The notes under the pieces were generated by a model. That model was given only the letters and a program-made list of their open reading frames with translations, did not search any database and was not told the DNA's origin. From positions 1-42,920 of IMG/VR virus record IMGVR_UViG_3300045988_008560: a DNA stretch of 42,920 nt. One strand, written 5' to 3'. Below, in pieces: positions 2,930 to 16,297 of this stretch; the first letter of the stretch is position 1; each line of letters opens with the position of its first letter. A program made the position numbers and the translations under genes. Source of the DNA: a virus.

Positions 2930-3371
2930 CCTTTATCGCCTCCAATGCACGCTTCGCCTCCTCGCGGGTGAGGAATACGGTCTTGCCGATTTCATTAACC
3001 GGTACGCCGAAAATGGATTTATCAACAAACCCGGCTACGATATCCCATTCAATGAATGTACAAAACAATTCCACGCGAATTGCCTTTACTCGGTATTCGC
3101 TTATGGTTTTTCGACTTGTAACCTCATACACCGTATCTCCCGCCTTGCACGGTAGCACCGCCAGCCGACCGGCCTTGTCGGCCTTAATCCATTCTTTAAT
3201 CTTTTCAAGGCCATTCGCATGTATCCATATTGCTAATTCTGCGGTTTCTTGCACAAGTTCGGGTGTCAGCCCCGTGTCCTCGTAGGCGGCAAGGCGGTTT
3301 GCCGCTTCACCGCTTCCGCAATGATAAGACCAACACCCGTATTCTTCGTTCCAATAGGTCAATCGCTCCAT
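2922..3371 (-). CDS. hypothetical early protein
   Basis: ORF 2922..3416 trimmed to MERLTYWNEEYG (ATG 3371) preceded by GGAGGA. Confidence 0.75.
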   Translation of the reverse strand: MERLTYWNEEYGCWSYHCGSGEAANRLAAYEDTGLTPELVQETAELAIWIHANGLEKIKEWIKADKAGRLAVLPCKAGDTVYEVTSRKTISEYRVKAIRVELFCTFIEWDIVAGFVDKSIFGVPVNEIGKTVFLTREEAKRALEAIKDE

Positions 3372-3397
3372 CACATTTCCTCCATTCTGAGCCTTGC

Positions 3398-3664
3398 TCA
3401 CGGCTTGCCCTCCCACGGGGTCTCAAGCCATTTTTTAATTTCATGCCAATCTTCTGGCATCGTCGAAACACCAGAGAGGTTTTTCACGATGATATCCATC
3501 CGGAAATTGCACAGCACCCCGGCCAGCTCGTTGTCCGTCATGCTCCGGATCCGGTCGGCAATGGTAACGGGCCACGTGCGATACGGGCACTTTTCGATTG
3601 CGGCGCAGTTTTCAAAGTCATAGCCTATCTGCATGGGGCAGTTTTCACCGGTGCACTTTTTCAT
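3398..3664 (-). CDS. hypothetical Cys-containing early protein
   Basis: 88-aa ORF, 4-nt overlap with upstream gene. Confidence 0.75.
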   Translation of the reverse strand: MKKCTGENCPMQIGYDFENCAAIEKCPYRTWPVTIADRIRSMTDNELAGVLCNFRMDIIVKNLSGVSTMPEDWHEIKKWLETPWEGKP

Positions 3665-3927
3665 AATTTCACCTCCGGTATCCAGCGCCGTTCAAGCAGC
3701 TCCGCGCTTTTCTTGGCCAACAAGGCCGATGCCTCCCGAAGCTGCTCGTTCTGGCTCCGCAGCCACTCAATCTCCCTTTGCAAGGCCAAGATGTAGGTGT
3801 TTTGGTTGGCAATCCGGTCGGCTGCTTCTGTCAGATCATCGCCCAGCGTGATCGGCGTTTCCCACTCATTTGCCTGTGCCCATTCTGCGTGCTCACGCAG
3901 CGAATTTACGAGGTTTGTATCTCTCAT
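3661..3927 (-). CDS. hypothetical coiled-coil protein
   Basis: ILALQREIEWLRSQNEQLREASALLAKKSAELLE heptad-like helix; ATGA coupling. Confidence 0.75.
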   Translation of the reverse strand: MRDTNLVNSLREHAEWAQANEWETPITLGDDLTEAADRIANQNTYILALQREIEWLRSQNEQLREASALLAKKSAELLERRWIPEVKL

Positions 3928-5621
3928 AATTCATCCTTTCCGTATGGGAACAAAAAGCGCCCCATGTCTCCTGGTTTCTCTACCGTGCCGAACCGCCGTT
4001 TGGTCACTGCGATGGGAAACTCTTCAATCTCGCTGGCCCATAGGCACGTTCCGCGTCCGTTCAACTGCTCCCAGATCAGCGGGAAACCACCTATTCCATC
4101 GAACAAACTTGCCATAGTCGCGTCCCGCTCGTAGTTGCCGCACAGCCGTTTCAACAGCCATTTCCACGGCGGCAGGGCGATGGAGTTGCCCAGTGCCTTA
4201 TACCGGGGGCTGTCCGCGTCCTTATGGCGCTTGCCCTTGCTGTCCGTCCACTCGCCCAAGTCGGTCCAGTGGTCAGGGAATCCCTGAAGCCGTTCGCACT
4301 CCAACGGGGTCAGACGGCGAACAACACGGTTCTGCACCGGGTATGTCTCCGAATCCTCCCGGAAATCGCAGTTTGCTTTTGCCTTTAGCGTGTGTGCAAT
4401 ATCCGGTACAGCCGCTCCGCATACCAGCATATCGTTATAGGCATCCTGCCCATTATAGCTCCCTGCGTGTGCTCCGGGCGATAAAGTCCCGGTGGTTTTC
4501 TGGTACGTCAGCGGGATTTGGTTGCCGCCGGTTCCCATACGGGCTTGCAGACTGGGAGCTACCTCACCGCAGTCTCGGATGACATCGCAGGCGTGGCTCA
4601 TATCCAGAATGGCGCACGGCACATGGGCGTTGGCGTTCAGCGTGTGACAGGGCTTCCCAAAATCAGGAATACTCCCATTCTGCTTGCTGGTGATCTGCGT
4701 AGTGTCAAACGCCATGACCGCTGGTTGGTGCCAATGCTCCTGTGCTCTCAGCGTCCCGGAAACATCATGGCTCACGCCCATCATGCTACCGCCCTGATTG
4801 TTCAGGCACAGCACCGATTCCTGATTCTGGCCGCTGTTTTCTCCGGCTGGCAGCGTTGGCATCACACCGGCTTCGCTGTATACCCGCTTGCTCTGGCAAT
4901 CCCATGGGGTCAAGCAGTTTTGAAAAATCGTCTGGTCATTGCCGGTGCCAAGCGTACCGCTTTTCTCCGTCTGGACTAAGGCTCCTTTTCCTCCTCCGTC
5001 ACAGCCCCCCCTGATTCGGACTGCGCAAGCAGCACCGCTTTCAGCACCGGCGGAAGGTCTTTCCCCCTCCGCTCCGCTCTCCGCAGGATACCCTGACACG
5101 CTTTGCTGCTCAAACAATATTTCCCATGCGGTGTCGCCTCCAAAATCTGCGACAAGCGCGATTCTACGGCGACGTTGGGGGACTCCCCAGTGTTGCGCAT
5201 CGAGCACTCGCCACGCAACGCTCCATCGTCCTCCCATTTCATCGTGGTATCCCCCCCAGGTGTTCCAACCTTTTTCAGGCACTTCAATATCGGGGGCTTC
5301 CGGCTCTGCGACCCGGATGGCTTCTTCGAGGACGGCCGCAAAGTCTTTTCCTCCGTTGCTTGAGAAGGCTCCGGGAACATTTTCCCAGACCATATACCGA
5401 GGTCGCAGAAACTCACCTGTTCTCCCGCTTGCCATGTCATGTTCTCTCATCTCCTTCACGACCCTGATCTGTTCCATGTATAGGCCGGAGCGCGCCCCGG
5501 CCAGCCCTGTCCGCTTTCCGGCAATAGAAAGGTCCTGACACGGACTGCCGCCGATCACCACATCCACAACGGGGGCCTCCGCTCCATTGATCTTCGTTAT
5601 GTCACCAAGATGGAGCATCAT
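3924..5621 (-). CDS. DNA (cytosine-5) methyltransferase with circularly permuted motif order (III-X then I-II)
   Basis: From SD-linked ATGATG (5621/5618): LGDITK (III), GGSPCQDLS (IV), ENVPG (VI), QRRRR (VIII), long TRD, RRLTPLECERLQGFP (IX), RYKALGNSIALP (X), then MASLFDGIGGFP (I) and WASEIEEFP (II) in the last 63 aa. Confidence 0.85.
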   Translation of the reverse strand: MMLHLGDITKINGAEAPVVDVVIGGSPCQDLSIAGKRTGLAGARSGLYMEQIRVVKEMREHDMASGRTGEFLRPRYMVWENVPGAFSSNGGKDFAAVLEEAIRVAEPEAPDIEVPEKGWNTWGGYHDEMGGRWSVAWRVLDAQHWGVPQRRRRIALVADFGGDTAWEILFEQQSVSGYPAESGAEGERPSAGAESGAACAVRIRGGCDGGGKGALVQTEKSGTLGTGNDQTIFQNCLTPWDCQSKRVYSEAGVMPTLPAGENSGQNQESVLCLNNQGGSMMGVSHDVSGTLRAQEHWHQPAVMAFDTTQITSKQNGSIPDFGKPCHTLNANAHVPCAILDMSHACDVIRDCGEVAPSLQARMGTGGNQIPLTYQKTTGTLSPGAHAGSYNGQDAYNDMLVCGAAVPDIAHTLKAKANCDFREDSETYPVQNRVVRRLTPLECERLQGFPDHWTDLGEWTDSKGKRHKDADSPRYKALGNSIALPPWKWLLKRLCGNYERDATMASLFDGIGGFPLIWEQLNGRGTCLWASEIEEFPIAVTKRRFGTVEKPGDMGRFLFPYGKDEL

Positions 5622-5944
5622 TCCACCTCCGCAAGCCAGAATTTCTTCCGGCACTCCGGGCAACATCCAACGCCGGGGCAATTCCCACGCAATACTGCAT
5701 CCACTTCGCAGGGGGATATTTTAACGATCCCGGTATCTGGAAATATTGGCGCATTGGGAAACATCTCCAAAAACACGCTCTGGCGGGTTTTGATAGGGTG
5801 CTCGGCGGTCCACCGCTCGACAAACTTCACCGCCCATGTGTTATCTCCTGCTGTCCTGTAATCGTTGTAGCGCATTTTTTCTTCGGTAGACCCCCTTTTG
5901 CTGAGACGGTCAACCTTGTCCAAAAACTCCACAGCATCCATCAT
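5618..5944 (-). CDS. hypothetical early protein
   Basis: 108-aa ORF; its last codons carry the GGAGGTGG SD of the methyltransferase. Confidence 0.75.
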   Translation of the reverse strand: MMDAVEFLDKVDRLSKRGSTEEKMRYNDYRTAGDNTWAVKFVERWTAEHPIKTRQSVFLEMFPNAPIFPDTGIVKISPCEVDAVLRGNCPGVGCCPECRKKFWLAEVE

Positions 5945-6318
5945 TCTGCCTCCTCAATTTCCACGCGGATCGTATCTCCGCCCCAAAATTTGTGTTCCAC
6001 GGCACGGAACCATTTGCGGTTATCATCCGGCAAAATATAGCCTTTCATCGCGTCCACAAAGGCTTTGCCCAGCGCGCCGTGATTGTCAACGTCCAAATTG
6101 TCATTCCAGAAAAACGTCACCTTTACGGGGTAATTTACCAGGCATTTTGTAACACCTGCTTTGCGCATTGCCCAGTGGGCCAAGGTATGTAGCTCTTCCG
6201 CGTCCTTCTTCCGCTGTGACCAATGCTTACCGGCGTAATACGCGTTCAGGCCAAACCGCTTGTTCCACGCCGCTTTACCGCGTTTTGTTGCCGGATAGGG
6301 GATCTCAAATGCAATCAC
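5941..6318 (-). CDS. rusA: RusA-family Holliday junction resolvase
   Basis: GTG start; NLDVDNHGALGKAFVDAMKGYILPDDNRKW fits the RusA acidic catalytic pattern (D..N..K..D...DD). Confidence 0.7.
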   Translation of the reverse strand: MIAFEIPYPATKRGKAAWNKRFGLNAYYAGKHWSQRKKDAEELHTLAHWAMRKAGVTKCLVNYPVKVTFFWNDNLDVDNHGALGKAFVDAMKGYILPDDNRKWFRAVEHKFWGGDTIRVEIEEAE

Positions 6319-6452
6319 CGCTTCTCCCCCTTGCCATCGGTAATGACGCTGACCACCCGGACGCGGCCCAGAGGCTCCAGCAGCATGGCCACCGCCTCCT
6401 TCGTTCCCTGTGTGTCCTCGCCATCGTAAATGTCAATCACAAGCCGGATCAT
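6315..6452 (-). CDS. small hypothetical protein (45 aa), not in ORF track
   Basis: Hand translation MIRLVIDIYDGEDTQGTKEAVAMLLEPLGRVRVVSVITDGKGEKR; ATGA overlap upstream and GTGA overlap downstream. Confidence 0.4.
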   Translation of the reverse strand: MIRLVIDIYDGEDTQGTKEAVAMLLEPLGRVRVVSVITDGKGEKR

Positions 6453-7249
6453 GTTGCTTCTCCCATTCGCATTTGCTCAAATTCCGGCTTTTCAAACAGT
6501 GGTGCAAGCATTTCCCCCTTTGCCGCTTTGTAAAACGCCTTATCAACCTCAAAGCCGTAGGCATTGCGCCCTAACTCATATGCGGCCCGGAGCGTAGACC
6601 CGCTGCCAGCGCAAGGGTCAATCACCACATCGCCGGGATCCGTAAATACGGAAATCAGCTTTTTCAAGACACCAATCGGCTTCTGCGTTGGGTGTACCTT
6701 CGGATACTCGCTGCGCTTGTCACGCTCCCACGAGATCCAGTCAAATACCATGTGCCGCTCTCCGTCTGCCCCCACGTTGCGGAATTTCGGCAACTTGTCC
6801 CGGTAGAGGACAACGGCAAACTCCGTCGCGCCGACAATTTTCATGTTGGCCTTCAGCACTTGCGCCGAATAGTTTTTTACGAAAAACAAGGGGTAAGACT
6901 TCATAAACCCGTATTGCTTTCCGTACTCGATCACCGTCTGCATCTGCTCAAAGGCGCAGAATACGATCATGGCCGGTGCCTGCCCCTTTTCCTTCGGCTC
7001 CTTCCGCAGCATCCGGTTGCAGAAGTGCATATACTCCGCAATGCGAAAATTCCCGTCCGTGTGAAAAAAGCTCTGCTTCGCCAGCTTGCTTTCTCCGTTC
7101 TTGTTGTCACCGTCCTTGTACCACATAGGGTTAGAAGCGTATGCATCCGCACCGATGTTGTACGGAATATCCGCGATCACAAGTTGTGCTTTCGGTACAT
7201 TGTATCGCTTAAAATTTTGAAAATTATCGTGGTAAAGTTCACACTTCAT
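6449..7249 (-). CDS. N6-adenine/N4-cytosine DNA methyltransferase, beta-class motif order
   Basis: ORF trimmed to MKCELYHD (7249); catalytic VIADIPYN (DPPY variant) precedes HPTQKP and AdoMet motif VVIDPCAGSGST. Confidence 0.8.
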   Translation of the reverse strand: MKCELYHDNFQNFKRYNVPKAQLVIADIPYNIGADAYASNPMWYKDGDNKNGESKLAKQSFFHTDGNFRIAEYMHFCNRMLRKEPKEKGQAPAMIVFCAFEQMQTVIEYGKQYGFMKSYPLFFVKNYSAQVLKANMKIVGATEFAVVLYRDKLPKFRNVGADGERHMVFDWISWERDKRSEYPKVHPTQKPIGVLKKLISVFTDPGDVVIDPCAGSGSTLRAAYELGRNAYGFEVDKAFYKAAKGEMLAPLFEKPEFEQMRMGEAT

Positions 7250-7251
7250 CG

Positions 7252-7506
7252 TTATCCCCTCCTGAATTTTGGGCAGGCGCGGACGCTGAAAGATTTCTCT
7301 ACAAACTTCCCGCTGACCGTCCGTGTTGTGGCTATCGCATCCCATCCGGGGACCGGCTCAAACCGCGCCGACCACTCGCAGCCGCCGTATACATTAGCGC
7401 AGTCCCAACAAAGCTGCTGAGACTGGTACGTCACCTCCGGCGTCCTTGCCGCCTTCCATCTCCGGCACGGGCGCACCAGATCAGCCAGCTTAAAATCTCC
7501 CGCCAT
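7252..7506 (-). CDS. hypothetical Cys-rich protein
   Basis: Trimmed to MAGDFKLAD; start overlaps the upstream stop codon by 1 nt; CWDCANVYGGCEW. Confidence 0.7.
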   Translation of the reverse strand: MAGDFKLADLVRPCRRWKAARTPEVTYQSQQLCWDCANVYGGCEWSARFEPVPGWDAIATTRTVSGKFVEKSFSVRACPKFRRG

Positions 7507-15265: not shown

Positions 15266-16297
15266 ATGAAAATACCGAAGGCGGTAAAGCTGCCGTCCGG
15301 CTCATGGTATATCAACATCATGGTAGACGGAAAGCGTCTCTCCATCACGGCTCCGACCAAGCGAGAAGCTGAAAATGAAGCTGCCGCCATCAAGTCTGGT
15401 GCCAAAGCCGCCAAGATAAAAATAAGGTTCACCGTTGGAGAAGTAATCGATAGATACATCTCCAGCAAAGATACCGTTCTATCCCCTACTACGATCAATG
15501 GGTATAAAAAGCTCCGCAAATCCGTTTTCCAGGAAATCATGGATGATCCAGCGGATAGCATTTCGCAAGAGCGTGTACAACGGGCCGTCAATAAAATGGC
15601 TCGCTCCAAATCGCCTAAATACGTCCGCAATGCCTACGGGTTGTTCACCGCAGCAATGGCAGAATATTTCCCAGATCGGATGTTCCGCATTACGCTGCCA
15701 CAGAAGGAAGCTCCAAAAATCCAAATCCCTACCATGGACCAGATTCGGACACTGCATGAGGATTGCCGTGGAAAACAATTTGAGCTGCCGTTTCTGCTGG
15801 CCGTCTGGCTTGGCCTGAGAACATCGGAGATTCGCGGCCTGACATGGGATTGCATTGATGGGAATACGCTTATCATCAAGCAAGCACTCGTTGAAGGTGA
15901 AAACGGGCCTGAGTTAAAGCAACCGAAAACATACAGCGGAAACCGACGCTTGCAGGTCCCTCCGTACATAATGCACCTACTGGAGGAAACGCCGCGCACA
16001 GACGAATATATCGTGCACTACACCCGCAGCGCCATGTATAACCATTTAAGACGCGCTTGTATCCGCCATGATATCCCTCCATTCCGATTTCACGATCTGC
16101 GCCACGTCAACGCATCTGTAATGCTTGAACAGAACGTGCCAGACAAATACGCTATGGAGCGGATGGGACACGCCACAAACAATATGCTTAAAAACGTGTA
16201 TCAGCATACAATTAGCAAGAAATCAAAGCAGGTCGCAGATAACCTCGATCGCTATTTTGAAAAAGAATTACAGATAAAATTACAGATGAACAATTAA
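15266..16297 (+). CDS. int: tyrosine recombinase / phage integrase
   Basis: LGLRTSEIRGLTW (box I Arg) and RFHDLRHVNAS...MGHATNNMLKNVYQHT (HxxR..H..Y). Confidence 0.95.
   Translation: MKIPKAVKLPSGSWYINIMVDGKRLSITAPTKREAENEAAAIKSGAKAAKIKIRFTVGEVIDRYISSKDTVLSPTTINGYKKLRKSVFQEIMDDPADSISQERVQRAVNKMARSKSPKYVRNAYGLFTAAMAEYFPDRMFRITLPQKEAPKIQIPTMDQIRTLHEDCRGKQFELPFLLAVWLGLRTSEIRGLTWDCIDGNTLIIKQALVEGENGPELKQPKTYSGNRRLQVPPYIMHLLEETPRTDEYIVHYTRSAMYNHLRRACIRHDIPPFRFHDLRHVNASVMLEQNVPDKYAMERMGHATNNMLKNVYQHTISKKSKQVADNLDRYFEKELQIKLQMNN
16266..16290 (+). repeat. AATTACAGAT(A/G)AA direct repeats, left of attP core (inside the int 3' end)
   Basis: aattacagataaa + aaattacagatgaa; same motif recurs at 16475..16512. 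Confidence 0.6.

Follow-up and report, generated by a model that had tools for sequence, protein, structure and literature searches.

In this study, a cytosine-5 (C5) DNA methyltransferase gene with a permuted motif order, and a second open reading frame (ORF B) lying inside it, were analysed in the viral record IMGVR_UViG_3300045988_008560 of IMG/VR, positions 1 to 42,920. This stretch, called the window below, is essentially the whole genome (42.9 kb) of a temperate siphophage. The ATGATG start of the methyltransferase gene (5621-5616) overlaps the TGA of the upstream open reading frame (ORF; 5618..5944), and its own TGA shares nucleotides with the ATG at which the downstream ORF (3661..3927) begins. 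Either Met of the ATGATG is used as start among database relatives. The protein is public, in identical or near-identical form, as DAF99661.1, DAG05422.1 and UniRef100_A0A8S5VFG5, with an annotation merely as cytosine methyltransferase.

Alignments with M.HhaI, with the Pfam family PF00145 and with a canonical-order homologue showed the motif order III-IV-VI-VIII-TRD-IX-X-I-II (TRD, target-recognition domain) in the protein of 565 amino acids (aa), bearing out a sequence-only reading of the same DNA that had proposed motifs III to X followed by I and II. Motif positions were taken by regular expression on the database protein P0002, which shows 100% identity with the query in full-length BLASTP alignment. 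They were LGDITK at 5-10 (III), SPCQ at 26-29 (IV), ENV at 80-82 (VI), QRRRR at 149-153 (VIII), RRLTPLE at 435-441 (IX), GNS at 478-480 (X), LFDGIGG at 506-512 (I), and WASEIE at 528-533 (II). In phmmer comparison with M.HhaI among solved structures, query residues 504-549 corresponded to HhaI 15-56 (motifs I-II), 6-60 to 59-113 (III-IV), 134-158 to 146-170 (VIII), and 426-452 to 264-289 (IX). PF00145 was matched with 126.9 bits (cut-off 22), split over four stretches, and TIGR00675 with 122.7 bits (cut-off 100.65); the 63-aa tail by itself matched PF00145 profile positions 4-44 (E = 2.2e-4).

The N-terminal 160 residues carry GDITK (III), GGSPCQDLS with the catalytic Cys28 (IV), ENV (VI) and QRRRR (VIII), and the relocated C-terminal segment, which binds S-adenosylmethionine (AdoMet) in canonical enzymes, carries FDGIGG (I), WASEIEEFP (II) and a tail, GTVEKPGDMGRFLFPYGKDEL, that is a possible relic of motif III. 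The former C-terminal helix is the present linker into motif I. The catalytic Pro-Cys of IV, ENV of VI, QxRxR of VIII, FxGxG of I, the acidic residue of II and the GN of X were all present. A six-frame motif scan of the whole window revealed no further motif I or II, and the upstream ORF had no Pfam match; motifs I-II in an N-terminal position or encoded by a separate upstream ORF, named by the sequence-only reading as the sign that would speak against permutation, were thus not found. By homology the window protein is classed as a C5 methyltransferase, not by a linear topology running from I to X. The breakpoint lies between motifs II and III, as had been proposed, i.e. between HhaI residues 56 and 59, with residue 2 of the window protein at canonical Met43, and this places the protein in class B of the circular permutants in the nomenclature of PMC5944983. 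Coordinates of the features are collected in Table 1.

Table 1. Methyltransferase locus and other features of the window
Feature	Position	Strand	Remarks
Circularly permuted C5 DNA methyltransferase, coding sequence	3924..5621	-	565 aa; stop TGA 3924-3926
Shine-Dalgarno sequence GGAGG	5626..5630	-	4 nucleotides (nt) 5' of first ATG (5621-5619), 7 nt 5' of second (5618-5616); read from sequence
N-terminal catalytic part, residues 1-160	5142..5621	-	PF00145 profile positions 46-129; residues invariant in 51 homologues
Variable region, residues 154-434	4320..5162	-	281 aa between VIII and IX; linker and seven cassettes of ~30-45 aa; putative tandem TRDs
Motif IX (RRLTPLECERLQGFP), motif X (RYKALGNSIALP) and C-terminal helix, residues 435-502	4116..4319	-	PF00145 profile positions 272-318
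Relocated AdoMet-binding segment, residues 503-565	3927..4115	-	Old initiator Met503, motif I, motif II, tail
ORF B	4976..5440	-	154 aa and TAG stop; +1 frame relative to methyltransferase; spans motifs VI-VIII and linker
AAGGAG	5451..5456	-	10 nt 5' of ORF B ATG (5440-5438); forms KE codons of methyltransferase frame
G7 homopolymer, codon 122	5251..5257	-	Hot spot in relatives for switch from methyltransferase frame (frame A) to frame B
G7 homopolymer, codon 204	5005..5011	-	Just before ORF B stop; relatives fuse B to TRD half here
Second methyltransferase, N6_N4_Mtase family	6449-7345	-	PF01555, E = 5e-24; ~0.8 kb upstream of C5 gene
Integrase	15266-16297	+	Nearly all other genes on minus strand

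The same motif order was found in 120 of the 120 best database homologues (57-100% identity, 469-729 aa). An exhaustive search with the 63-aa I-II segment gave 517 clusters at 50% identity (E<=1e-10), the best 150 of which were examined; motif I lay inside the last 85 residues in 144 of these 150 closest clusters, and motif X stood directly upstream of it in 123. Two queries of IMG/VR returned 378 and 184 relatives, the sets overlapping. All of the 80 loci kept from the first scan were collinear with the query from about residue 2 to 545-565, and the permuted order in one ORF was present in most loci of both scans (~160 loci). Species-representative genomes contained 336 stretches, mostly prophages, with hosts in Oscillospiraceae (Acutalibacter, Oscillibacter, Dysosmobacter, Intestinibacillus), Ruminococcaceae, Christensenellales, Lachnospiraceae and others. 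Faecalibacterium phages are the closest cultured relatives of the methyltransferase gene, and the isolated phages FP_Toutatis and Lelie also carry it in permuted form. The search of related phages recommended in the sequence-only reading found the architecture widely, canonical order is not universal among the relatives, and the gene, treated there as a one-off, belongs to a large family.

The window is a metagenome-derived contig, and a normal or tandem gene collapsed or mis-joined in assembly would give an apparent III-X-I-II order. However, hundreds of independent contigs drawn from many samples show the order, as do isolate genomes and cultured phages; the genes on either flank are unrelated, and the order persists down to ~40-50% sequence identity; the overlaps of the start codon with the upstream stop and of the stop codon with the downstream start also contradict a misassembly. 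In our judgement an assembly artefact is refuted by this recurrence, and the chance of one is negligible.

The gene is often fragmented by gene callers. At L005 (3323-4687), ORF B and a 3' piece were called in place of an intact 454-aa methyltransferase, and at L002 (FP_Toutatis, 3001-4412) two methyltransferase coding sequences are annotated owing to a frameshift at a G run. At L004 (1-3222), the methyltransferase gene has lost its 5' end and with it motifs III-IV; in place of this end stand three tyrosine-recombinase genes, in tandem on the opposite strand, in what looks like a mobile-element insertion.

Among 51 sequences, residues C28, E80, R150-153, F507, G509, G511, G512, E531, and N479 were invariant. 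Outside the ORF B overlap, amino-acid identity was 0.72-0.81 and just 0.37-0.48 of identical residues used the same codon; codon-position variability there was 0.28/0.15/0.62, the third position being the most variable. Synonymous sites are saturated, and the gene is under purifying selection and is not decaying.

The seven cassettes of the variable region have [ST]L cores, namely SGTLGTG, MPTLPAG, SGTLRAQ, CHTLNAN, APSLQAR, TGTLSPG, and AHTLKAK. Whole cassettes were gained and lost combinatorially between close relatives, and the length of the variable region increased by ~40 aa per TL unit (r=0.80, n=120). The multi-TRD character suggested by the sequence-only reading agrees with the seven cassettes and the whole-cassette differences. 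The Bacillus subtilis phage enzymes SPR, phi3T, rho11s and H2, studied in the Trautner laboratory, are orphan, multispecific methyltransferases with tandem TRDs that have a T-L core and can be deleted or swapped. By description these tandem T-L domains resemble the cassettes of the window enzyme; the motif order of the four enzymes is canonical.

Canonical-order relatives at 34-42% identity occur in [Clostridium] clostridioforme AGR2157, Anaerotaenia torta DSM 100431, Desulfosporosinus, Desulfitobacterium and Lutispora, and read M..LGSLFDGIGGFPL...WASEIEPFPIEVTKIRFPEM-LHVGDITKL. Where they have VTKIRFPEM-LHVGDITKL, the permuted protein starts M-LHLGDITKI, and the context of the internal Met is conserved as FP-E/D-M-x-H-V-GDITK. 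In BLASTP with the C. clostridioforme enzyme, residues 2-375 of the window protein matched 43-469 (2e-88), 423-491 matched 564-623 (3e-17), and 503-556 matched 1-52 (5e-11). Based on these segments, the start Met of the permuted protein is the one that is conserved, internally, in the II-III linker of the canonical enzymes, and the Met at the joint (...ERDAT-M-ASLFDG; T-M-A/G-SLFDGIGG) is the old initiator. A stop-to-start fusion at ...ERDAT-MASLFDG... had been read from the sequence alone and is supported here, with the old initiator kept at the joint.

Canonical residues 43-52 are represented twice in the window protein, as the working N-terminus MLHLGDITKI and as a degenerate tail, VEKPGDMGRF. 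The tail RF-GTVEKP-GDMGRF has the same spacing after RF as canonical RF-PEMLHV-GDITKL. The spacing thus agrees with the relic GDMGRF suspected earlier, whereas the identity is thin (only two identical residues, and most family members terminate directly after VTK.RF), so that the doubled residues are a plausible rather than proven scar of tandem fusion followed by trimming.

A sister form was observed at L093 2941-4164 (IMGVR_UViG_2061766007_000057) and in the P0268 cluster. It has the order TRD-IX-X-I-II-III-IV-VI-VIII in a single ORF of 407 aa, with an X-to-I joint (YDYDPT-MASLFDGIGG) in common with the window enzyme, an intact II-III link, and the cut between VIII and the variable region. 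Two topologies with one shared joint agree with one fusion that was later trimmed in different ways. The permuted arrangement would then have arisen once in the family, two tandem copies fusing in frame, stop to start, with the 5' copy cut back to the conserved internal Met that immediately precedes motif III and the 3' copy shortened to a point just within that motif. The canonical-order relatives lend support to the origin by tandem duplication and trimming that had been put forward.

ORF B, a conserved second reading frame inside the gene, had escaped the sequence-only reading. Its conserved C-terminal domain reads LSQILE..KY.LS.KACQGILRRAERRGK.LP. The start Met is at least 90% conserved. 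Of the 86 sequences examined, 81 had the frame open for ~145-180 codons, with the same start position in most. ORF B is conserved in ~250 related loci, canonical-order relatives included (16 of 19 such loci by count), and therefore predates the permutation. When the codons of frame A were shuffled synonymously, ORF B stayed open in just 0.35-15% of trials in each of nine lineages. At residues identical in frame A, the same codon was used in 0.70 of cases inside the overlap versus 0.42-0.48 outside, a difference that held in 36 of 36 lineage pairs. The fraction was 0.84-0.91 at residues 151-200 (0.77 with canonical relatives), where frame A identity is ~0.45-0.55; codon-position variability at these residues was 0.43/0.28/0.32, so that variation peaks at what is the third position in frame B. 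At L088, an insertion displaces the B domain (LS.ILE..KY.LS.KAC.GILRRA.RGK.LP) from motif VIII, and the domain is still conserved.

The possibility that ORF B is a shadow of frame-A motifs (W.GK of VWEN; ESPNVAVESRLSQILE of GVPQRRRRIALVADFGG) was rejected, because synonymous suppression is strongest where frame A is least conserved, the periodicity switches to B, and the domain is displaced at L088. From these substitution patterns ORF B is likely to be a genuine translated gene. It had no match in Pfam or NCBIfam, a profile search of PDB sequences gave nothing relevant, and it showed no similarity to any methyltransferase motif; in PHROGs only a weak match was found (phrog_16143, E = 4.6e-4). 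The AlphaFold2 model of ORF B had a mean pLDDT (predicted local distance difference test) of 59.6 and was confident only at residues ~100-140, a small helical unit; Foldseek comparison of the model with the PDB gave nothing below E = 2.6.

Both G7 runs arise from Gly-Gly in both frames. At the first run, three of the five frameshifted loci (FP_Toutatis, L038, L039) had G8 or G9. The runs may serve phase variation or may be mere hot spots for indels or errors. In the split forms L095, L118, L120, L135, L141, L198, L200, and L227, a one-base change puts B in frame with TRD-IX-X-I-II, so that the first ORF comprises motifs III-VIII and the second, overlapping ORF comprises the B sequence followed by TRD-IX-X-I-II, an arrangement reminiscent of the heterodimeric M.AquI. 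We rejected the idea that the B-TRD and III-VI/B-tail fusions in the databases are designed isoforms, since many of the switches are scattered (G7, C5 and A5 runs, and elsewhere). Most B-fused database proteins look like indel variants or sequencing errors, with a minority of coherent split forms. A search for loci with the B-fused representative P0135 returned only ordinary single-chain genes.

The active enzyme might be a complex, with the I-II segment swapped between chains in a domain-swapped dimer or with the ORF B product as a required subunit. ORF B is conserved and under its own selection, and in the split forms L118, L120, L135, L141, L198 and L200 the B sequence is the N-terminal part of the TRD-IX-X-I-II polypeptide. 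A precedent is M.EcoHK31I, a C5 enzyme whose gene (alpha) contains a second functional ORF in another frame, the product of which, beta, is needed for activity (PMC2836561). That beta subunit carries motif IX and is encoded in the variable region, whereas ORF B has no known motif and overlaps VI-VIII. Moreover, frame A contains each of the ten canonical motifs, B is without similarity to a methyltransferase motif, Pfam family or solved structure, and B-TRD fusions arise trivially by 1-nt indels because both frames share the same DNA. We consider an obligate complex unlikely. A wider scheme, in which the locus would be a dual-coding module, appears possible but doubtful: B would be overprinted and act, like M.EcoHK31I beta, as a subunit, assembly factor or regulator, and single-base slips at the G7 runs would toggle three states, namely single-chain enzyme plus free B, split alpha plus B-beta, and off.

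The gene very probably encodes a functional, single-chain, naturally circularly permuted C5 methyltransferase of a temperate siphophage infecting gut Clostridia, as judged from the motifs and their conservation. The chain would start at motif III and run through the catalytic loops IV, VI and VIII, the seven-cassette mosaic, IX, X, the old C-terminal helix and the old Met into I and II, so that the relocated segment would supply, at the chain end, the first strand-helix-strand of the AdoMet-binding Rossmann fold. Completion of the fold by the tail is expected from homology and engineered precedents. The enzyme would most likely methylate several different short sequences on the phage DNA, protecting it from host restriction.

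Several observations weigh against this interpretation. AlphaFold2 prediction of the whole enzyme with 51 close homologues, a shallow alignment, gave a pLDDT of 30.8 and an unusable model; multispecificity is deduced solely from the number and shuffling of cassettes; and the overlapping ORF B could mean that the enzyme needs a partner. Furthermore, a single chain is not universal, some relatives being frameshifted (FP_Toutatis, L038, L039, L044, L061) or in two ORFs. About one third of the 80 closest IMG/VR loci (27, counted) have the 4 nt TAGA inserted right after the catalytic Cys codon (L001 3934-4030; L010, L012-L015, L019, L045, L049, and others), giving GGSPC-stop with QDLS in the +1 frame. 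Three otherwise diverged N-terminal variants share an identical 24-nt core, GGTGGTTCACCTTGTTAGACAGGA, and the remainder of the gene is intact. This lineage may reflect programmed +1 frameshifting, a split that is tolerated, or a recent decay into pseudogenes. An intron or deletion that removes the catalytic Cys from relatives starting with MVHLVRQDLS was considered and rejected, the DNA showing the TAGA insertion after the Cys codon.

Such frameshifted and interrupted relatives are what would be expected if the gene were a decayed methyltransferase that no longer methylates DNA. The window copy, however, is an intact ORF of 565 codons with all catalytic and AdoMet-binding residues, the key residues do not vary among homologues although synonymous sites are saturated, and enzymes engineered to this topology have full activity (PMC5944983). 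An inactive relic is thus very improbable, and the active permuted enzyme is retained as the preferred interpretation.

C5 methyltransferases have a textbook rigid motif order, and the natural prokaryotic exceptions described in the literature searched are all broken in the variable region (PMC5944983; bioRxiv 10.1101/2023.12.13.571470). M.BssHII, the one permuted enzyme named in the sequence-only reading, is not the lone natural permutant; 27 such enzymes were counted in a 2018 survey of REBASE, including M.BssHII, M.Alw26I, M2.Eco31I, M.Esp3I, and M2.BsaI (PMC5944983). A December 2025 classification recognises just two m5C topologies, canonical and Eco31I-type (bioRxiv 10.1101/2023.12.13.571470). 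The five enzymes named (zeta; class F of Samokhina and Alexeevski, bioRxiv 10.1101/2023.12.13.571470) have X followed by I, as in the window enzyme. Their termini lie in the variable region, with IX-X before I-VIII, whereas the window enzyme starts at III, being cut between II and III, and does not belong to this class. The sister form L093/P0268, of the same family as the window enzyme, has a BssHII-like order. In a literature search whose coverage excluded subscription journals, no description of a natural permutant broken between II and III was found.

The topology of the window enzyme has been made in the laboratory. Engineered permutants of M.MpeI and M.SssI whose N-terminus falls between II and III had the highest activity among ten topologies, that of M.MpeI being close to wild-type, and directed evolution of M.HaeIII through duplication and truncation led to active variants that start at the same place, some with redundant peptides (PMC5944983). 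These constructs share with the window enzyme an N-terminus between II and III or within III and joined old termini, and the redundant peptides of some cpM.HaeIII variants are like its tail. They are, however, laboratory constructs of small monospecific enzymes, whereas the window family is natural and widespread and has a large multi-cassette region.

Canonical prophage enzymes from [Clostridium] clostridioforme AGR2157 (L215), Anaerotaenia torta DSM 100431 (L209) and Desulfosporosinus metallidurans (L210) belong to the same sequence family, with 34-42% identity to the window enzyme overall and 50% over motifs I-II. They share with it WASEIE.FP, the linker after VIII, the multi-cassette variable region and ORF B, and differ in their I-to-X order and intact II-III link. 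Plant DRM enzymes are also circularly permuted C5 methyltransferases; DRM2, which is eukaryotic, has motifs VI-X before I-V. DRM2 gave only a weak PDB match to the window protein, which it resembles as a natural C5 permutation, with a different breakpoint.

In addition to the genes listed in Table 1, the window encodes a terminase, portal, major head protein, tape measure, endolysin, RusA (5941-6318), NinB, and a replication initiator. With the N6_N4_Mtase gene, two or more DNA methyltransferases lie beside RusA in the replication/recombination module of the phage.

The family gives C5 methyltransferases a second breakpoint found in nature, lying between motifs II and III, and this is the most permissive site according to engineering and directed evolution. 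It bears marks consistent with permutation by duplication, including canonical relatives, a fused joint with its Met, a possible scar, a sister permutant, and split forms, and it is therefore a rare natural test-bed for the emergence of protein topologies. ORF B, if translated, is a gene of large size overprinted on the conserved core of an enzyme and may reveal a partner of phage methyltransferases. For specificity engineering, the shuffled cassettes of putative TRDs represent a natural library. Annotations describe hundreds of gut-phage genes as ordinary or fragmentary methyltransferases, and classifiers based on topology would mis-sort them.

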